Shown here piece by piece: positions 2,620-54,374 of a DNA stretch of 64,000 nucleotides. The stretch's first letter is position 1. Each line of letters begins with the position of its first letter. Made by a program: the position numbers and the translations under genes. Under the pieces are notes generated by a model. The model saw only the letters and a program-made list of their open reading frames with translations. It did no database searches and was not told where the DNA came from. This stretch comes from Tortispora ganteri (taxonomy: Eukaryota). The stretch lies in the NCBI GenBank assembly GCA_003707115.1, contig PPNB01000008.1, positions 124,001 to 188,000 on the forward strand, in the 5' to 3' direction.

Positions 2620-4452
2620 TGTGATGTAGGATTACGAGCAAGAGCAGCAGAAAGGCGAATCAGTAAAAAAATTGAGGGAATGCTTCTAAATAGTGTGTCT
2701 TGTTGATATATGCCGAATATATACAGTACTGTAACTGCCGTGTAAATTGTTTGTTGCTGTTCTATATGAGTAGAAAGATGCTAGTCTAAAGATCTATCGA
2801 TCGATGGACGAAATACAGTGGGTGAAGGTGACCTTTTAAGTGCGAAAACCGAGGTCCTGCTGAATACTAGAAATCTTCTGATGTAGTGAAAGACTGAAAG
2901 TGATTACCGTCGTTTAAGAGATCGCGGACAGTAGCGGTAAGAGAAAAAAAAAAAGGGCTGACAGGCCAGTTATAGTACAAGAAAAACCTGCTAAGGTAAA
3001 TGCGAGCGACAATAATTGAGTAGTGTGAATCTATTCACAGCTGCTGCAATATATCTGAGAGTAAGCGGTAAAATAACTAACCGAAAAGCAGCGGATGAAA
3101 ATGTTGCGGTAGAGAAAAGAGGTAACAAGAACTAGGTGGTAGAAAGATAGGTTTTTCGGCACAAGAGGATTTTTGTGAAAAGAGTGGGTAATTTTAGCTT
3201 CAAAAAGTCAGTAAACTTTATTGACGTTAAAGTATACAAGAGGGTTGTGCTTAGACAGTAAAACAAGGGAGCAGTTTACCAGGGTGCAGGGTTCAAATTG
3301 AGATCGATAAAGAGGTCGCAATTTTTACAGCAACTTAGTGTAAAGTTGGACAGGGTATAGCTAAGTATAGTATATTTGATGCCTTTCATGATTTTATAGA
3401 ATTATTCTTTCATTAGGTAGAGAAGCAAGTTATATATGCAGTTGTAGTGCGAATGAGTGAGGGATGGGAAATTCAGTATGTAAAGCTAAATGCAAGTAAA
3501 TCAACCCTTTCGGGTAGTTTGGATTAGGGTATTCTAAAAATAAGAGAAGGAAAAATAGGATTATGCGTATTCCAGCGAATACGTCGTTATTGAAACTTTA
3601 GTGACCGCGTGGAACTTAGTATCGTTTACGCTCTCCATTTAGCATGTATTTGAGAATCATATAATACTTAACTTGTTCGAGAGTAATAATTATAAGAATT
3701 ATAAGAAAATTAATTAGACAACTTAAGGCACCAGCCAATATACGAATGAGCAGAGAGTTTCCACAATAAGTTAATATCAAAACTTAATCTACCCATAGGA
3801 TAAATTATGGAAAGCTTAATTGGACGTCTGGTTTTATTGCCTATTTAGGTTCATCAATATCACCCTCTTGAGCTCTTTGGAATATCATGGTAGTGCTGAA
3901 AGCTCGTAAGTAATTGTTCAGCTAATTTTTCGATGCGAAATTATGTTTTTTCTAGCAACTGCGTAAATTGATGGATTGATGTGTTACACACGGTAAGATA
4001 TGATATGTAAACTTTTTTATTTTGAAATACATAGATAACGAAACTTTAATTCCTAAAACAGATATGAATATTGAGTGTCGTTTCTGGAATAACTTAGATC
4101 CTTTGGGCCCGTTTAGCAAAAATTAGATGACTTTGAAGCAAGCTCGAGAAGTCTATATGCAATCAGTTTACTTCATATTGCTCTGGGTTTTGAGAACTTT
4201 GCTTAAGCTTGCACAATATTATCTTGCATATACCCACTACGTTCAGAATGCTACGATGCCAAGTAAGTGGAAATTAATACCTACAATTGTAAATGTAACA
4301 TAAGAAAAGCTAAGACAAATAAGCTTCATATTATTGTTTATACACCAATAAATAGACAGTATGCAAAGTTAGTCGAATTATAGTTTATGTAATACGGTAT
4401 TTGAATATGTAGTTATTTGTATGTGAAACAATAGCAATTATTCTTGTAGAAC

Positions 4453-8764: not shown

Positions 8765-10612
8765 TTACTCGACGGTTTCCAAAAAGAAATAGTTACCAGA
8801 GGCTTTCTGTTCTTGGTCGCGCTGGGATCCCATTTTGTTGATACGAGGACGGAATGAGTTCGGGTCGCGGCGGAAAGTGACATCGAGATTCTTTAAAAAT
8901 TTGTTGCAACCAGTAAGCAAGCCTTGAGGAGTGGTTGCAACAGCATCAACACCAGGAATACCTTCATATACAATGACACGGTCGGCGAGGTATGTGGCCA
9001 TAATGAAATCATGCTCGACAACGAAAGCAGTTTTCTTGGCATGCAAAATGAAACGTCTGATGACTTTAGCGCAAATAATACGCTGTTCAGAGTCCAAATA
9101 TGCAGAAGGTTCATCGATCAAGTAAATGTCCGCAGGTAGACCGAGGGCCAAAACGATAGCGACACGCTGTAACTCACCACCTGACAAGTTTTGTACTTCT
9201 AAATCTATTAAATCATCAATGCGTAAAGGTTTGACAACGTCAGTCTGAAATTGAGGATGCAAGAAAGAAGCACGAATTTTCTTGTGGAACAATTGTCGTA
9301 CAGTTCCTGAAAATTTGGGAGCGATTTTTTGTGGTTTCATAGACACTCTCAGTTCGGGGATCTTCTGATTGTTATCGGGAGCCAAAGCACCAGCTAGCAT
9401 TCGAATAAATGTTGTCTTTCCTGTACCATTTTCACCCATCATGACAATGATTTCCGAGTCGGTGAACTCGCCGGCTTCTACGGTGAGCTTGAAGTCACCG
9501 AGAGTCTTCTGCATTCGTGGGTACTCGAACGAGCGCGATTTATCGACGGGGATCAAATCAGTAGCGTCTGCGAGACGAAACTCGAGTGATTCTGTGCGGA
9601 AACGCATGTTTTCAGAAGGGATATTGCCGTCAAGAAAGATATTAATACCTTCGCGCACAGATGAGGGGAGTGTGACCACACCGTACACGGAAGGCACACC
9701 GTAAAGAATACAAATGAAATCGGACAGATAGTCAAGCACAGAGAGATCATGCTCGACAGCAATAACGTAACAATCGTGACTAGTCAGTAGAGATCTAATG
9801 ATATTGGCGGCATTGAGACGCTGCTTGACATCGAGGTAAGAGGACGGTTCATCAAACATGTAGACATCAGCTTTTTGGACAATAGTTAAACCGATAGCAA
9901 AACGTTGAAGTTCACCACCAGAGAGCTGAGAAACTTCACGGTTGAGAACGCTCTTAAGCTCAAGGACTTGCTCTACTTGAGCGCGGTTAGGCAGTTCTGA
10001 ACGCTCATCAAGAAGTTTGCCGACTTGTGTGACAGGCCCCTTTATGGCACGCGGAAGATGATCAACATACTGCGGCTTGATTATGGCCTTCAGATTGTCT
10101 TCAAGGATCTTTGTGAAGTAGTTTTGAAGTTCAGAACCTCGAAAGTGCTTAAGAATATCTTCCCACGTAGGCGGGTTGTCGAACCTACCAAGGTTAGGCT
10201 TTTGCTTGCCTGAAAGGATCTTCAAAGCGGTGGATTTACCAATACCATTTGAGCCGACCAATCCAAGCACTTGATTAGGTCTTGGTGTAGGGAGCCTGTG
10301 AAGCTTGAAAGAGTTCGCAGTGTATCTGTGCGTCACTTCTGATTCCAGATTGGTAGGCAAGTTGATGATCTGGATAGCGCCAAAAGGACATTTTTTAGGA
10401 CAGATACCGCATCCAATACACAAAGTCTCAGAGATAAACGCGATTTTAGATTCAGGGGTAACTTCAATACACAGCTTACCCGTTCTGACAACAGGACACG
10501 CTTTTTTACATTCTTGACGGCATTTCTTTGGCTTGCATTTGTCAGTGGACACTATTGCAATTCTTGTAATTTTGTCTGACACAGCAGATTTCGACTGGTT
10601 GACTTTTGACAT
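8765..10612 (-). CDS. RLI1: ABCE1 ribosome-recycling Fe-S ABC ATPase
   Basis: [15 protein letters not shown] and [13 protein letters not shown]e-S motifs, two ABC cassettes with LSGGELQR. Confidence 0.97.
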
Positions 10613-10859
10613 TGTTAATGCAATTTATACACCTGATTATCCACTTGCAGAATATGTACTTTTACAACACCGCCTTTTTCTTAGGCCTATGATTTCTATC
10701 GTTTGTGTGGTTTTTTTTTTACCTCTTTCACAGGCAAAGTCTTCAACCACGTCCCAAAAACTTTTGAAAAAAATTATTAGAGTTTCACAACCCTAATATT
10801 ATTAATTTTCTTGTTGATAATTATACGGCTTTCATAAAAATGAATTGCCTATTGAATAG

Positions 10860-11760
10860 ATGTAAATTTGTCAAATAATGGATATACGGTTTTCAAACGC
10901 TTTATTCAAAAAAATTTTAGATTCAAGTAACCTCTGAGAGATCTACAGCGCATGAACTTCTTTATGTCATCACGTCAGGTTTGCTGAGCAATTAACTGGG
11001 TTACAATTGGTGGGGGAAAATGCCCTAACCCATGCACGAAATGTATAAATAAGCTGATCGTTTGCTCAGCAACTGTAGTTTCTTACTTATAATAGGCGGG
11101 ACCTGATGAGTGCTAGGCCGAGGGAAAAACCTATGCGATAGCCTTACCGTTGGCTGGATTACTACTCATTGAAACATAGTTTCTTTATGTGGTCTTCTCT
11201 TTGCTGAACGTGACGTGTTGTATGAATATTGTATACATGCAATTGCTCTAATCGCATTGTTATTTTCTATCAGCATTAATGCACTCGAACGGCTGGTCTA
11301 TTATGAGCTAGGGCAAATATTATTGTAGAAATCCGAAATATGATATGATTTATGTTCTGTCTAAAAATAAAAGGGCTATAATTTTCATCTTGATGAGTGT
11401 CAAGGTGCGTAGGGGGTATGCCTCTGCTGTATAGACTGAATGCTGAGTTGTTTTTTTTTTTGGCTGAACGTTCGCTCGATCAAGTTGATATTTGGATCGA
11501 GCTAGAGCCGTACAACAGCACCGTCTTTTGTTGACCCTTTTTCATGTAGATTTCCATATACGTAGATTTACTAAATGAACAATGCTCTCTGCAAAGCTCG
11601 ATGGTTACATTTTTCTTATTGTGCTGGATCTGGAACAAAATTAAGGACGAAAAAATAGAGCAGATGTCGCAGCCGAAAACACCCAGCTTTTTACCCACTC
11701 GACCACATTTCCGTCTATTATTTATCGCGTTGACTTCTTTAACAAAACACATTTTTGTGG
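10860..11760 (+). ncRNA. Candidate telomerase RNA (TER); boundaries approximate
   Basis: Template-like CCCTAACCC 11023-11031; 5'/3' pairing AAATAATGG..ACGG (10873-10889) with CCGT-CTATTATTT (11711-11723); several long helices; Sm-like ATTTTTG 11751-11757; TACTAAC 11805-11811; no credible ORF. Folding done by eye only. Confidence 0.5.
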
Positions 11761-11804
11761 TTATAAATAAGACGAGAAATATCAGATAACTTGTCCTCAT
11801 ATAA

Positions 11805-11836
11805 TACTAACATTAATACCTACTATTTTCTCTTAG
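11805..11836 (+). other. Perfect spliceosomal branch point (TACTAAC) with pyrimidine tract and TAG acceptor
   Basis: TACTAAC 11805-11811; first downstream AG at 11835-11836 after TATTTTCTCT. Confidence 0.55.
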
Positions 11837-12059
11837 AAGGAAAAACACTGCGTACAGAGAAAGTGATAACTAGCTGAACCTTTGACACTATTCACTATAG
11901 TCGAGTAGAAGAATCGTTGGCTAGAACTAGTTTTAAGCTCAATTTAAAGTAATTAATGCACAGTATTTACTGCTGTATATACTGAATTTGTTTTGGATTT
12001 CTATATACTTCCCCTCTGTTTACTTCGAAATTAGATAGTGTTTTGTCGACTTGCCAAAA

Positions 12060-15000
12060 ATGGACGAATCTACAACAATATCGAATCTAAATAATGCATC
12101 TAAAATTGATTTTGAGCTAGACCCAGAGCTCTACGGCTTAAGACGGAGCTCACGCGCACACCATAGTGTTGCCCGTCTGGTAGAAGAAATAGATGATTCG
12201 GATCCCTCACCGAAAAGAAGAAAGACCTCAAAATACGTCTCTGAATCAAACTCTGATACCGATGACGATATGCCTCTTATAAAGCAGCACAAACCTCGGC
12301 AAAAGAGAAAGTCGGCTACACCTCAGCCTGATATCCCTACTGAAATACGATTTTCTACGCGTAACCAGAAAGTCATGAACTATAACGAGGACGACGATGA
12401 CGATCTCTCGCTCAGTGACGAGGAAATGCCTAATGACTCCTTAGGGGATGATGATGACGATAATGACGATGATGATGAAGACGATGAAGACTATGGCTAC
12501 GGTACTAAATCTAAATCGCGATCTAAAAAACAGGTTTCGACTCCGCGAACGGGCACTTCAACACCCCAGATAGAAGAATTCAATGAAAATGATCGCGGTA
12601 TAGATCAAGTCTTAGATCATCGTCCGATTGGAATCTCTGCTGATACTGCGTCCTATGACTCTTCTTCCCTTGATCCCTATTCTGACCTAGAATACTACGT
12701 GAAGTGGCAAGGTGCTTCTCATATTCACAATTCTTGGGAAACTTATGACCAATTAAAAAACCTTCGAGGAACAAAGAGGCTTGATAACTACATAAGATAT
12801 CAAGTATTTTATGACCAGGAAGTACGAAAAGATCCTATGACTACTAGAGAGGATATAGAATCAATGGATATTGAACGGGATCGTCAGCGCGAGAATTATG
12901 AGGAATACAAAACCGTCGACAGAGTAGTCGCTGCTCGTCGTATATTAGATGGTTCTGTCAGCAGACTGCAATATCTCATTAAATGGTGTCGACTTTATTA
13001 TGATTCTTGTACGTGGGAAGACGCACAGCTCATAGCTAAACTTTCCCCTAAAGATGTCGACGCATTTCGGTCACGCGAATCGTCTAGAATTGCTCCGGCT
13101 TTGTCTATTGTTTATGGCCCACAAAGACCACCATTTGAGAAACTCACTGAACAGCCAACTTACATTAAGGGTGGCGAACTGAGAGATTTTCAATTGACTG
13201 GTTTGAATTGGATGGCTTTCCTGTGGTCGCGTAATGAAAACGGAATTTTGGCGGACGAAATGGGGTTGGGCAAGACTGTTCAAACAGTTGCTTTTCTTTC
13301 GTGGCTCATTCATGCGCGAAAACAAAATGGACCGTTCCTTGTCGTAGTTCCATTGTCCACGATGCCGGCATGGCAGGAAACTTTTGATCTATGGGCCCCT
13401 GATATCAATTACATTGTCAATCTTGGTAACAGCAAAGCGAGACAAATTCTTAGAGAGCACGAATTTTTTGTGAATTCCAACATAAAAAAGCCGAAATTTA
13501 ACGTTCTCTTAACAACTTACGAATATATCCTAAAAGACCGCAGCGAACTCGGGTCTATCAAATGGCAATTTTTGGCTGTTGACGAAGCTCATCGCTTAAA
13601 GAATGCAGAGTCCGCTCTGTATGAATGTCTTAAGAACTTTAAAGTTGCCAATCGTCTTCTAATCACTGGTACTCCACTACAGAATAATATAAAAGAGCTT
13701 TCTGCATTAGTGGAGTTCTTGATGCCTGGCAGAATAGCTATTGACCAAGAAATCGATTTTGAAAATCCTGACGTGGACCAGGAAAACTATATCAAGTCTA
13801 TCCATGCTAGTTTGCAACCTTACATTCTACGTCGACTTAAAAAAGATGTCGAGAAGAGTTTACCCTCAAAATCTGAACACATTTTACGCGTTGTGATGTC
13901 TGACATGCAGACAGAATACTATAAGAATATTATCTCTCGCAATTATGCTGCACTGAATGCTGGTGCTACTTCCGGCTTGCAGATGAGTTTGTTAAATATT
14001 ATGATCGAGCTCAAAAAGGCCAGCAATCATCCATACCTTTTCCCTCACGCCGAGGAACGTTATTACTCAATGGTTGGGAATGACCGCTCACGCGAATCAA
14101 CACTCAAGGGGCTGATTATGACTTCTGGAAAGATGGTACTTCTTGATAAGCTGCTAAGTCGTCTTAAGAAAGATGGTCACAGAGTATTGATTTTTTCTCA
14201 AATGGTTCGAATGTTGGATATTTTAGGCGATTACCTGACGATAAGGGGTCATACCTTTCAAAGGCTCGACGGTACTATTCCTGCTGCTTCAAGGAGAATA
14301 GCTATTGACCACTTTAATTCGCCAGACAGTAACGATTTTGTGTTTTTGCTGAGTACTCGTGCAGGTGGCTTAGGCATCAACTTAATGACTGCTGATACTG
14401 TTATCATCTTTGACTCTGATTGGAATCCGCAAGCTGATTTACAAGCCATGGCTAGAGCTCACAGAATTGGCCAAAAGAACCATGTTCATGTATATCGATT
14501 TGTTTCAAAAGATACTATTGAGGAAGAAGTTTTGGAACGTGCTAGACGCAAAATGATTTTGGAATATGCTATAATATCTCTTGGTATGATCGACAATGGT
14601 GGTAACAGCTCCAAAAATGAACCTACGGCCAAAGAACTTAGCGTTATTCTGAAAGCTGGCGCTGGGAATATGTTTAGGGCTACAGATAATCAAAAGAAGC
14701 TTGAGGAAATGAACATCGATGACGTTCTTGAACATGCTGAAGACCATGTTACTACACCAGATGTAGGTCAGTCTCATCTTGGTGGTGAAGAATTCTTGAA
14801 GCAGTTCGAGGTCACTGATTATAAGGCTGATGATGTTGAATGGGATGATATTATTCCTGCTGATGAGCTCAATCGAATCAAAGAGGAAGAGAAGAAAAGG
14901 CAAGAGGAATTATTTCTTCAGCAACAAATTGAAATGTATTCCCGACGTCGTACAGCAGCGGTCAAAAGTGCGACATCGACTCCTATGGGTGATGACGGCG

Positions 15001-16436
15001 ATGACGAAGATGATGACGAAGGTACTGGCACGGATGGTCCTCGCCGAAAACGAGGCAGAAAGCCTAAGGTAGATGTTGAAGATTCGAATAACATCTCCGA
15101 AAAGGAACTTAGAATGATTTATCGTGCAGTGTTGAAGTTTGGAGATCTTGATAGCGACTGGGAATATTATTTCTCTGAAGGTATTTTGCCTACCGGAAAA
15201 AAGGAACTTGTAAAAGAAGTTTTTTTTGAAATGAGAAAGGCAGCCGAAGAAGCTGTTAAGGCTGAAGAGGCCCGGCGTACTGCTGTCGCAGAGGAGATTG
15301 CTAAGCTTAAGGCAGAGGGAAATATTGAAGCTTCAACACGACTTCGCAGACAAGAAAGAAAGGGTGTTTTTATTGAGTTCCGTGGTGTTAAAGGTTTAAA
15401 TGCCGAGCTTATTGTTGATCGGCCAAAGGATATGGCTATCATTCGTGAACTTATTCCACTCGAGCAAGCCAATGCTGACTTTACTTTGAATTATTCTGTT
15501 AAACCTGCTCATGGTTGGAGTTGCGATTGGGGTATCAAGCAAGATTCTAGTTTATTGGTCGGAGTGAGAAAATACGGTTTTGGTTCATGGTCTGCTATTC
15601 GTGATGATCCCTTCCTGGGTATGAGTGACATTTTTTTCCTGGATGAGTACAAAGGTGACAAGAGATCAAAAGATAAGGCTCCAACGGTAGTAAAATCTGA
15701 AGATAGAGATAACTCTTCCAAGCCTGAAGGGAATTCCCCTGAAGGAAAAGCGGAAACTGCTGAAATTAAGCAAGAAAACGACAACAATGCAGACACTCCT
15801 ACTCCATCAGATAAGCCGCCTAAAAGTGAGAGATCTGCAGCTAAAATACCTGGACCTCATCATTTAGCACGTCGCGTTGAATATCTACTGCACGTTATTA
15901 AAGATGCTAAGTATGGCACGTCTAAAGCTGTGGTTAATGGTTCACGAGAAACGCCTAGTATAGCGCCCAAGAAGAAGAGAAAGCCCGCCGCATCAAACTC
16001 GAAAGGTTCAACTGAAACAGGAGTGACCAAGTCATCTTCTAAGAATGCAGCAGGATCGCAACAGAAAGAAAATAAACCTACAGAATCTCCTAAGGGTACT
16101 CCAGCACCCGGCAGTAACAAAGTTATGGAAGATGATTATTCAGAGTATGAGAGCATGGATGAAGGCGAATGCAAAACCACGATGCATCCTGTGCGAAAGT
16201 CATTGAGACGTTTGAGAAAAGGTGGCGACGGCCTAGACAAGAAAGAATGGGTGGCTATTCTAAAGAAGGAACTTACTACTGTTGGAAAGTATATAGACGA
16301 TATAGTCAAGGGGTATTCTGGCGACCAAGAGAAACGCAGCCGACACTTATGGGTGTTTGTGAGTTATTTTTGGCCTGCAAAGGTATCAAGTTCGAAAATT
16401 CGGACTATGTATGAAAGACTCAAAAGCTCTGCTTGA
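12060..16436 (+). CDS. CHD1: Chromodomain helicase DNA-binding chromatin remodeller
   Basis: Tandem chromodomains, SNF2 ATPase ([25 protein letters not shown]), SANT/SLIDE-like region; first ATG at 12060. Confidence 0.96.
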
Positions 16437-20977: not shown

Positions 20978-21073
20978 CAATTTTATATATATTACTACTA
21001 ACACACCGACCTATATATAGTTAGTTACACTTTGATCTACCTCTATTATTTATAATTTCCATCATCCGCAGAA

Positions 21074-45308: not shown

Positions 45309-46159
45309 TATCGGCAGAGAAATGCGGATTTAACGCAAAATTACAAGAAGAAAAAAGGACAATCAGTCGAGTAACAAAAGAATTAAGCGATTACTATCGA
45401 TTTGCAGATGTATTTCGACTCTAATTCTAGAGAAATGCGAAAGGACAAGAGATAAAGGAAAAATGATGTTACGTTTCGGATCTCTTATATAGGGGGAGTT
45501 AGCTAGGGTGGTAGGAAACAGAGCTTTATTTCTACTCCGAGCCAATCCGGTAAGAGCAATTGAAAGTAGTCCCCTAACCCTAGCTAATAAGGTTTGTAGA
45601 GTAATTTCTCTGTGTAGGCCGAGAGCGTGTTGTAAATGTTAGAAGGGCGATGTGTAGGCTGGAGGTAGGGAGGTGAATTGAAGAGTTGAGTGTTTGCGTG
45701 TCTTATTAATCAAGAGGAGGTCCTTTTAAGGATGCAGGATTGTACAACAGGATTGTACAACGGGAACGTACAGAGCAATTGCGACGCTTTACCCACCAAA
45801 ACGTGGGGAACTCCTATTGGGACTAGTGGAACGATCCGTTAGCCCATTTTGGATCTCGGTTACTGCGGAGAGAGAGCATAAATAGCCGGAGCGGCAAAGA
45901 ACTACGGTTATTTTATGGGGAAACTGCAAGCTACAATGTTGAAAAAACGAGTGTGAATAATTAGGAAATGCTTTAAATGTGGTAAGATATGTAATTGAGA
46001 ACTGACGGAAAGAGTAGAGCGGTGCAGTGTCCGGAAACTAACGAAGATCAAGTGAATAGCCGCTGGGCGCTTAACTCTATTTTCGATGAATCTGGGGTAT
46101 GTGTGTAAACTCGGAGGTAGTTTTCGCTGGATTTAGATTCGTAAAAAGCTTGAGCAGTG

Positions 46160-48361: not shown

Positions 48362-48884
48362 TTGTCTTATTATGTCCTAAAGAGGCGTATGTATTGGCTT
48401 TATATATGTGACGCACCATATAAGCTCTAGCATGACATCATACCACAGGGCGTCTCATCAGGCGGGTCTAGACCACACGCTCTGGTTATTGGTAGAAAGT
48501 CACGTTGTTTTAAAGGAATTTCACGTTACATTCTAGAACAATAGTATCATTTCGAACTAGTGCTCTATTGCCCTTCTTTCGTTTTCATGTGCCGGTAGTG
48601 CACAAGGTACATATACCATTTATAGCGTTTCTGGAGATAGTGGTACCGTCTGTAAGTCGTTGCTGCTCAGTGATACTAAAAATCAAATATCAATTGCAAC
48701 CGTTAAGATCGCTTCAGCCGGATATTCTAGTACTAGAGTCATGATTTTGCAAATTCTAGCCAGTTCTCCTACAATGTCTTTGATCGATATCGCGTTGTTC
48801 CTAAACAAGTAACTCCCAGAGATGGCGTGCCCACAAATAGCATTTGTGAATGGTCAAATAACAACTCTTTTGCGAACGACTATT

Positions 48885-50095
48885 ATGGATTTTAGTGTAA
48901 TAAAACAAACAGGATTTGCAACAATTGAGGTGTGTATGTTTTATTGTATAATGGAATTTATTCTAACTCTTTTTAGTCCTCTTTGTCAGTGCTTATAGTG
49001 TTGTTTTCGGGTTATGCAGCGGTAGTAAAGGGCTTGCTCACACACCCAAAATCGATATCGCATGTGTGTGTATACATATTCCTGCCTGCAATGATATTTA
49101 CCGAAATGGGTCCATTCTTAACTGTGAACAATATAGAGAAACTTCTACCAATCATTGTACAGACAGTTTGCATGATGTTGGCTTCGTATTTGCTCGCAAT
49201 CATTAGTGTGTCTTGCGGGGCACAGGACTTTGTTGTAGCTGGCTCAGTATTCAACAACTCTACAGCTCTACCTCTCTTGCTTGTACGTGGTCTTGCTAAA
49301 TCCGGCGCATTAGACGCTATATTGCCTGAAGAAAATGCTCCACTCATAATTAAGCGAGCCAATGCTTACACATTGTGCTTCTCCGTTATGCACACATTTG
49401 CGCGCTTTTCGATAGGCCCTTATATGATGCACAAAACACGCCGTGCCAGTATGATCAGAAGAAGCTCGCTGATCCAAGCAGGAATGTATGAAAACTTACC
49501 TCTACTTGAGTCTACCAAGCCAAACACTTTGTCGCACAAGGTGAAATCCGCATTAAAGGCCGTCAAACACCAGCTAGGTGCAGCTTTCAACCCCGCAGTC
49601 ATCGCCTCCTTAGTCGCCTTGGTGGTGGGCATCACCCCTCCATTACACTATTTTATTTTCGACTTTGGACCTGTCGCTAGATCTTTTACAGCTGCTGTAG
49701 CTGATATGGGTGACTTGTACGCTGCTCTGCAATTGTTCGTACTGGGCTCACAACTGGTTTCTCCACCTGAAAGGCACGTCTCTAAGATATCGCTACTTGT
49801 GCTTTGCACAATTCGATATTGTGCCATGCCAGTAATCAGCATGTCGGCCGTATACCTTTTGCGATCAAACTACCCTAATTTATGGCATCGCGACCCCTTG
49901 CTAGATTTCATGCTCATGATCCTGCCAGTTGGACCTTCAGCTGTAAGCCTTGCCGCTGTCGCTGAACTAGCTGGAGCTACTTCACACGAAATATCTGTAA
50001 TTGCCCGCGTCTTGCTTGTTATATACATATTCACACCTGCCATAGCCCCTTCGGTGGTATTCGCTCTCTATCTCACAGGCAGACTATATAACTAG
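48885..50095 (+). CDS. Auxin efflux carrier / membrane transport family protein; 2 exons (48885-48929, 48977-50095)
   Basis: Many TM segments, FNNSTALPLLL motif; ORF lacks ATG unless the short intron GTGTGT...CTAAC...TAG is spliced, giving MDFSVIKQTGFATIE|SSLSVL. Confidence 0.75.
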
Positions 50096-53764: not shown

Positions 53765-54374
53765 GTATTCACGATGCAAATAGAGGTATTATTGTGTGGC
53801 AAAATCCTTATAGGATGTTCGTCAAGATTGTTGTTGTGCCTTCTCCACGGGCTTTGCTGTTAACGGTCGCCGTCACCGTACTTACTTGTACTGACGCGGT
53901 GTTGTATGTCTGCAAAAAAGTATACAAAAGGGACACACCGCCTATTCGGTGTACCAATCTAGCTTGAGATGCGAATGCAGCTGTAAACCAAATAGTCCAG
54001 TGACAAAACTACGTTAATGCGGACTCGGTTGTACGGGGTATGGGAGCGCTTGATGCAATTCAGTGACGAAGAAAAAAGGGCAAAATCTGGGGTCGCAACC
54101 ATGACAACACTGATGTGGGTTTAGGTTTACTGATGTCAATAGCGGCTGTTATTGGATAATTGCTAGATAAAGTTGACAACCGCGTTTGCGGGCACCGCGG
54201 CTAAAAAAAACCTTCATTTGTCTATTAACTGGTGTTCGAGGCTCTAAGCATTGAGAGACCGATCCAATACTGTGTCAATACCTGTAGTTGGCGGTACTGC
54301 AGTGTATGTAGCGGTATACGGATTATATTTTTAAAATTGCATCGTACAAACATCGCTAACTTCAGGTTCCGACA

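Follow-up and report, generated by a model that had tools for sequence, protein, structure and literature searches.

Neurospora-type telomerase RNAs (TERs) have a non-canonical AUAAGU donor, and the pyrimidine tract of Schizosaccharomyces pombe TER1 is weak. The donors of Candida and Hansenula TERs begin with G, unlike those of Aspergillus and Neurospora, which begin with A. For S. pombe TER1, an overlap of one nucleotide between the Sm site and the donor has been described, and a strong branch site together with a remote 3' splice site has been called critical; among fungal TERs, donors lying 14-27 nt past the Sm site are allowed, and the Aspergillus donor is AUA(A/C)GU, the first A of which blocks the second splicing step (PMC4299874). 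The TER of Hansenula polymorpha (HpTER) is 689 nt long, its donor GUGAGU being at 690 and its UACUAAC occupying 720-726, and the Sm consensus of yeasts has been given as AU5-6GR (PMC3851723). Here we compare these systems (TER1 of S. pombe, S. cryophilus and S. octosporus, the TERs of Aspergillus and Neurospora, and HpTER) with a locus of the budding yeast Tortispora ganteri (Trigonopsidaceae). The locus, 11751-11836, lies in the spacer between the genes RLI1 and CHD1; positions are those of the window, by which we mean the whole stretch of 64,000 nt that was analyzed (contig PPNB01000008.1 of assembly GCA_003707115.1, 124,001 to 188,000).

At this locus an Sm-like site is followed by a perfect branch-site consensus and a pyrimidine tract that ends in an AG (Table 1). 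The Sm-like site, which matches the yeast Sm consensus at seven of eight positions, has TGGTTATAAATAAGA directly 3' of it. The first AG is found at 11835-11836, its G being 26 nt past the branch A, and 92% of the 12 nt preceding it are pyrimidines. All these motif positions, including the distance from branch A to AG, had been given in the initial annotation of the window and were reproduced. Upstream of the Sm-like site, the + strand of the spacer runs for 1138 nt without an open reading frame (ORF) longer than 62 amino acids. Tentatively, and with somewhat less than an even chance of being right, we read 11751-11836 as the 3' end of an Sm-class long non-coding RNA (ncRNA), with telomerase RNA as the likeliest candidate and with a maturation that would be assisted by the spliceosome. 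Judged from sequence, spliceosomal processing of a telomerase RNA is plausible here, and it would be consistent with the known fungal cases.

The joint occurrence of the motifs is unusual. TACTAAC is found eight times in the window (six copies on the + strand and two on the - strand) and ATTTTTG 22 times, 11 on each strand. Six of the eight TACTAAC copies are coding, while the two noncoding ones are those at 11805 and at 20996, the latter in the TATA-rich aconitase promoter; only the copy at 11805 stands beside a long pyrimidine tract. The arrangement ATTTTTG-N20-50-TACTAAC was observed once, compared to a mean of 0.01 in 100 shuffles, a single one of which attained this count. TACTAAC-N8-38-YYYYYNYAG was also observed once, with 0.17 expected and 17 of 100 shuffles attaining one. 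Under a Markov-2 model trained on the noncoding DNA of the window itself, the Sm and branch sites occurred together in 15 of 4000 simulated strands of 1447 nt, and the full composite, with pyrimidine tract and AG, in none of the 4000. A simulation of 25 Mb with the noncoding Markov model gave 0.12 composites per Mb of strand. The combination of motifs is rarer than chance and non-random.

At this rate, and with a genome of ~9.2 Mb as reported for Tortispora caseinolytica (PMC5499181) and a noncoding share of ~21% (13481/64000 in the window), chance composites would number ~0.5 per genome, compared to one telomerase RNA gene. We estimate the chance that a telomerase RNA gene carries such a composite at ~0.1-0.3, and the gap sizes suggest that ~1/5 of chance composites would have at least 650 nt of ORF-free sequence upstream. 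One telomerase RNA gene per genome, taken at 0.1-0.3, is thus set against ~0.5 chance composites, ~1/5 of them with enough upstream space, and this comparison, taken alone, favors the ncRNA.

Table 1. Sequence features of the RLI1-CHD1 spacer, its flanks and the likely introns of the window.
Feature	Position	Strand	Basis or remark
Sm-like site AUUUUUG (ATTTTTG)	11751-11757	+	sequence
Donor candidates GTGGTT (11757), GTTATA (11760), ATAAGA (11767-11772)	11757-11772	+	none canonical
Perfect branch-site consensus TACTAAC	11805-11811	+	sequence; branch A at 11810
Pyrimidine tract ending in TAG (11834-11836)	11820-11836	+	or the change from T-rich to A-rich sequence at a transcription start region
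CCCTAACCC, 1.5 TTAGGG-type repeats in C-strand sense	11023-11031	+	candidate template, or promoter site of a TTAGGG factor (Tbf1/Tay1-like)
TGGGTTA, inverted partner of TAACCCA (11026-11032)	10997-11003	+	paired in predicted fold
Palindromic 13-mer GTTTGCT(G/C)AGCAA, copy 1	10979-10991	.	inverted-repeat search
Palindromic 13-mer GTTTGCT(G/C)AGCAA, copy 2	11060-11072	.	81 bp from copy 1
Consensus TATA box TATAAATA	11045-11052	+	14 nt 3' of CCCTAACCC; inside TATAAATAAG (11044-11053)
Run of 11 T	11451-11461	+	U-tract of a yeast telomerase RNA pseudoknot region, or plain poly(dT)
Box C-like 9-mer TGATGAGTG	11103-11111, 11392-11400		boxes at 11104 and 11393
Box D-like 9-mer GCTGAACGT	11203-11211, 11464-11472		boxes at 11204 and 11465
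Upstream ATG, 9-codon ORF, putative CHD1 leader	11956-11985	+	read from sequence
RLI1 (ABC ATPase with Fe-S domain), left flank	8765-10612	-	ORF; Pfam ABC_tran, Fer4_RLI, Fer4
CHD1 (chromodomains, SNF2 ATPase, CHD1 C-terminal domains), right flank	12060-16436	+	ORF and Pfam
Likely intron, Mem_trans gene	48930-48976		47 nt; GTGTGT donor, TTCTAAC, 10 nt to AG
Likely intron, 5' leader of MDM10	54304-54365		62 nt; GTATGT donor, CGCTAAC, 6 nt to AG

Two likely introns were found in the window, one in a Mem_trans gene and the other in the 5' leader of MDM10, where it ends 10 nt 5' of the ATG. The initial annotation had described the other intron of the window as having a weaker branch site and a shorter distance from branch point to AG, and both likely introns fit this description; next to their distances of 6-10 nt, the 26 nt at our locus are long for this genome. 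The Mem_trans (auxin-efflux-carrier-like) gene has its probable start at 48822. Its intron, the donor of which is unusual, restores the N-terminus, and the ORF taken from 49091 is without the first 44 profile positions.

Since the likely introns are short, the donor for the branch site at 11805 is expected ~30-50 nt upstream, that is, in the region of the Sm-like site. If these two introns are typical, only an atypical donor beside the Sm site could serve this branch site. Among the candidates, GTGGTT shares its G with the Sm-like site (an overlap of one base), and ATAAGA agrees with the Aspergillus-type AUAAGU at five of six positions, the mismatch being at position 6. The mini-intron implied by the latter is 70 nt, in the order Sm site, 9 nt, AUAAGA, 37 nt, UACUAAC and 25 nt ending in UAG. 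From what is observed, namely a rare set of motifs with no canonical donor and with ORF-free sequence upstream, we infer how the RNA might mature. A + strand RNA would be transcribed from the RLI1-CHD1 spacer, its precursor passing the Sm site into an intron-like segment of 70-80 nt. The spliceosome would assemble on the perfect UACUAAC, and the first catalytic step would cut a weak, atypical donor at most ~10 nt from the Sm site, either AUAAGA (11767) or the GUGGUU that overlaps the Sm site. An odd donor and an AG distant for this genome might hinder the second splicing step, and the mature end, at ~11757-11767, would then result from trimming as far as the Sm-bound site.

Several properties of the donor region, of the spacer and of the putative template weigh against such an RNA end. 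To begin with, the base after AUUUUUG is U, where the consensus has a purine. The initial annotation had reported no canonical GTATGT or GTAAGT donor, which is borne out: neither these nor GTGAGT occur on the + strand between 10613 and 11800. The same annotation had proposed spliceosomal formation of the 3' end, and this proposal stands in part. The layout, the rarity, the ORF-free spacer and the short introns speak for it, whereas the donors that it named do not. The conserved G at position 5 is absent from both GTGGTT and GTTATA. ATAAGA differs at three positions from the likely donors of the window (GTGTGT and GTATGT) and lies inside a TATA box, being the tail of TATAAATAAG (11762-11771), which is identical to the TATA element at 11044-11053.

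This overlap suits another reading, which we consider nearly as likely as the ncRNA and hold just as tentatively: TATAAATA at 11762 would be the TATA box of the CHD1 core promoter, with transcription starting ~65-80 nt downstream (~11830-11845), ATTTTTG and TACTAAC would be chance 7-mers in AT-rich DNA, and the module further upstream would regulate RLI1 and/or CHD1. Indeed, TATAAATA (11762-11769) lies 298 nt 5' of the CHD1 ATG and is the only consensus TATA within 500 nt of it. Such an element is found within 500 nt of the ATG in nine of 36 window genes, at 45-421 nt, a range into which the distance at CHD1 falls. In addition, ~66 nt past TATAAATA a T-rich tract gives way to the A-rich AAGGAAAAAC, which resembles yeast start sites. 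With the TATA box and this switch, two of the five half-intron elements have an ordinary promoter reading. As for the remaining motifs, TACTAAC occurs by chance in another TATA-rich promoter, that at 20996, and none of the other seven TACTAAC copies of the window (0/7) is in a recognizable intron; ATTTTT followed by G is frequent in noncoding DNA, with 421 per Mb in the noncoding model. No Rfam match, fold signal or conservation was found for the spacer. What a core promoter accounts for poorly is the joint rarity of the motifs in shuffles (1/100), in simulated spacers (0/4000) and per Mb, as given above. Also, a CHD1 leader of ~220 nt would contain an upstream ATG (11956), TATATAC elements are found nearer to the CHD1 ATG, at 11977 and 12003, and ~600 nt of spacer would be left in excess of the other divergent promoters of the window (822-851 nt).

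A third reading, which we regard as quite improbable, takes 11751-11836 as the 3' part of a fully spliced intron with a distant or degenerate donor (11220 or 11416), belonging either to the 5' untranslated region (UTR) of CHD1 or to an unannotated noncoding host transcript that starts past the TATA box at 11045. The branch site, pyrimidine tract and YAG resemble an efficient 3' splice region, MDM10 of the same window likely has an intron in its 5' UTR, and deviating donors likely occur in this species, as GTGTGT at 48930 suggests. Loose donors are also available, the nearest being GTATGA at 11220 and GTATGC at 11416, but the introns that they imply, 617 and 421 nt, far exceed the likely ones of 47 and 62 nt. 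Furthermore, the putative first exon and leader contain several upstream ATGs, the CHD1 reading frame is closed 5' of 12051, and no comparable acceptor was found near CHD1 in five syntenic loci. The alternative that had been offered in the initial annotation, an acceptor of a CHD1 5'-UTR intron, is therefore poorly supported: it lacks a canonical donor, has the upstream ATG at 11956 in its way and finds no counterpart in the syntenic loci.

These loci come from a metagenome scan with the N-terminus of CHD1, which yielded 12 yeast loci. In five of them (L001, L002, L003, L007 and L009) RLI1 is the divergent neighbor, and the spacer is ORF-free and 1.8-3.2 kb long. Exact-sequence cluster look-up named two of the five, one as Candida albicans and one as C. 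intermedia, while the loci of Hanseniaspora uvarum are without synteny. Divergent RLI1-CHD1 synteny with a long, ORF-free and Rfam-silent spacer is thus kept from a Tortispora-like yeast to Candida of the CTG clade. Since long spacers are normal among the syntenic yeasts, the length of the spacer does not count as a sign of a hidden gene. In C. albicans and C. intermedia, the RLI1-CHD1 spacer contains no match of at least 11 nt to the telomere repeat published for the species, so these yeasts have their telomerase RNA gene elsewhere; the promoter reading gains from both facts. The argument that a large gap indicates a hidden gene was consequently dropped. Between the five syntenic spacers and the window neither nucleotide nor tblastx similarity was found, apart from one low-complexity tblastx match, and the composite of Sm site, donor and branch site is absent from the five spacers except for one long and weak match on the - strand of L003. 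In L007, a stretch of 36 nt at 1882 has terminal repeats of 12 nt with a period of 24.

If the ncRNA is a telomerase RNA, its template might be CCCTAACCC, which lies ~720 nt upstream of the Sm-like site on the same strand and would template TTAGGG. It is flanked by ATGC(N8)ATGC with a period of 12, and either the 12-nt unit TTAGGGCATGGG or TTAGGG, as the telomere repeat, would fit 11020-11035. Basal budding yeasts are reported to have TTAGGG-like telomere repeats, and the sole telomere motif of Trigonopsidaceae that we found in print is TTAGCGAGGTG, not TTAGGG (PMC7857110). The spacer contains no good match to TTAGCGAGGTG, the best having two mismatches in 11 nt at 11678, and the literature searched gave no telomere repeat for any Tortispora. 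The evidence for a template is weakened by a second copy of CCCTAACCC in the window, at 45572 in the promoter region of PYC. TTAGGG-type 9-mers are not enriched either, with three loci compared to ~2.9 expected by simple arithmetic for 64 kb, both strands and six permutations. No template boundary helix was found within a few nt 5' of 11023. A hunt for templates through terminal direct repeats turned up numerous chance candidates of equal merit, on either strand as well as in other gaps, and was given no weight. The second copy of CCCTAACCC lies in a TTAGGG-like promoter element (45498-45586), where CCCCTAACCCTAGCTAA at 45570 and TTAGCTAGGGT at 45499 are inverted partners, ~260 nt 5' of the pyruvate carboxylase ATG.

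The surroundings of CCCTAACCC at 11023 also have the appearance of a promoter. The motif has an inverted partner, TGGGTTA, 22 nt upstream, and it is placed between two palindromic 13-mers and 14 nt 5' of a TATA box. Each copy of the 13-mer is probably a dyad site for a DNA-binding protein rather than an arm of an RNA helix; the complementarity between the copies stems solely from the palindromic nature of each. An 11-bp helix enclosing the template (10981-91/11062-72, with 11-nt arms that are 100% complementary) was rejected for this reason, the arms being copies of one self-palindromic motif. Together, the palindromes, TGGGTTA, CCCTAACCC and the TATA box look like a compact regulatory module upstream of RLI1.

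In Saccharomyces cerevisiae, TTAGGG-factor sites combined with a TATA box mark the promoters of small nucleolar RNAs (snoRNAs). The module could accordingly drive other small RNA genes of the spacer, for instance two units resembling C/D-box snoRNAs, and the Sm and branch motifs would then be unrelated to these genes; of all the readings we find this one the least credible, and highly improbable in itself. Two C...D pairs, 100 and 72 nt apart, do occur in the proper order with identical 9-mers. Terminal stems of these units were not found, however, the sequence 5' of the second box D is poly-U and useless as a guide, and Rfam gave no match for the units even when its filters were relaxed on 431 nt. 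In addition, ~4 exact repeats of 9 nt are expected by chance in 1447 nt. The order of the 9-mers may be a coincidence, or the units may be diverged C/D snoRNAs.

The putative ncRNA offers little by way of structure. Poly-U is the only recurrent motif among yeast telomerase RNAs (PMC6115765). For a pseudoknot and a three-way junction (P6.1-like) of this RNA there are just the run of 11 U and pairings drawn by hand from one sequence. Fold z-scores are ordinary and uninformative, at -1.19 for 801 nt of the + strand, -1.44 for the - strand and +0.63 for the 3' 301 nt. A search of 1701 nt against Rfam with E-values up to 10 returned no telomerase family, only three matches at chance level, to sRNAs of bacteria and to a snoRNA of a plant. 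A search of 431 nt with relaxed filters added nothing, and at the gathering score the window and the five loci together gave one tRNA only. The curated telomerase RNA models are narrow, so the lack of a match carries little weight.

Because of the overlap with a TATA box, the weak donors and the promoter-like context of the candidate template, our estimate for the ncRNA has been pulled back to the level given at the outset. A wider proposal built on it is rather unlikely, namely that this early-branching yeast keeps the ancestral ascomycete TER design, which would combine a TTAGGG-type template of 9 nt (CCCUAACCC), a 3' end made by the first splicing step only, an A-first donor AUAAGA and ~750-830 nt between RLI1 and CHD1. 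No description of the telomerase RNA of this lineage was found in the literature searched, and beyond a few families the telomerase RNAs of budding yeasts are difficult to detect. If true, a TER from Trigonopsidaceae would add a case close to the root of the subphylum and would be informative on the timing of the divergence of TTAGGG repeats, on whether spliceosomal 3'-end formation is ancestral in Ascomycota, and on whether the second step is blocked by an A-first donor, by a strong branch site whose AG is distant, or by both. If the promoter reading is true, the finding is an ordinary one, and it would caution that a TATA box with a start region can be mistaken for a half-intron.

The window is gene-dense budding-yeast DNA with a G+C content of 43.7%. 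In its BUD22 protein it shares 82% identity with T. caseinolytica and at most ~29% with other named matches, at comparable coverage, which places it in Trigonopsidaceae, an early-branching family, next to Tortispora. RLI1 and CHD1 are divergent, and the 1447 bp between them (10613-12059) form the second largest of 37 noncoding gaps, the others being 1833, 879, 851, 834 and 822 bp and then smaller. An ORF of 106 amino acids on the - strand of the spacer (11480-11800) has neither a Pfam family nor a homolog. The spacer also contains an 18-nt repeat, CTGCTGTATA(G/T)ACTGAAT, at 11424-11441 and 11970-11987, with 17 of 18 positions identical and a chance expectation of ~0.001 by simple arithmetic; its second copy overlaps a TATATAC element 75 nt 5' of the CHD1 ATG. 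The possibility of an extended tandem duplication in the promoter region was considered and discarded, since the local alignment score of 91.5 is not significant compared to 80.9 +/- 8.6 in shuffles. A larger ORF-free gap of 1.8 kb (2632-4452) separates the gene of an RRM protein from GPN3. It contains no ORF longer than 62 amino acids and no Rfam match. On its - strand there is a TTAGGG-bearing direct repeat, TACCC-N10-TACCC at ~3512-3531, and ATTTTTG is found at 3169. An unannotated ncRNA may reside in this gap, or else a long leader.

Compared with described systems, the locus resembles a TATA-type core promoter of yeasts in having TATAAATA 298 nt 5' of the CHD1 ATG, then ~66 nt, a pyrimidine tract and AAGGAAAAAC. 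It differs in that such a promoter leaves unexplained why an Sm site and a perfect branch site occur together, ordered and spaced as they would be in an intron. With the spliceosomally cleaved fungal TERs it shares a U-rich site of the Sm type that is followed by intron signals within tens of nt. The proven TER donors given in the cited passages, GUCAGU, AUA(A/C)GU and GUGAGU, are matched by none of the candidates here, ATAAGA being mismatched at position 6 and overlapping the TATA box (PMC4299874; PMC3851723). The candidate donor that lies some nt past the Sm site and begins with A is nevertheless a likeness to Aspergillus TER, as the strong branch site and an AG that is far for this genome are to S. 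pombe TER1 (PMC4299874). The spacer differs from S. pombe TER1 in its good pyrimidine tract. The perfect UACUAAC branch site is shared with HpTER (PMC3851723). A further difference, this time from the TERs of basal budding yeasts, is that the candidate template precedes a TATA box within a DNA module flanked by palindromes. In length, the ~650-830 nt that the spacer allows are comparable to these TERs, which measure ~950 nt in the Yarrowia clade and 689 nt in H. polymorpha, and an Sm site that would stand at the 3' end, the U-rich tract in the middle and the TTAGGG-like core of the putative template are likewise features that they have in common (PMC6746865; PMC3851723).

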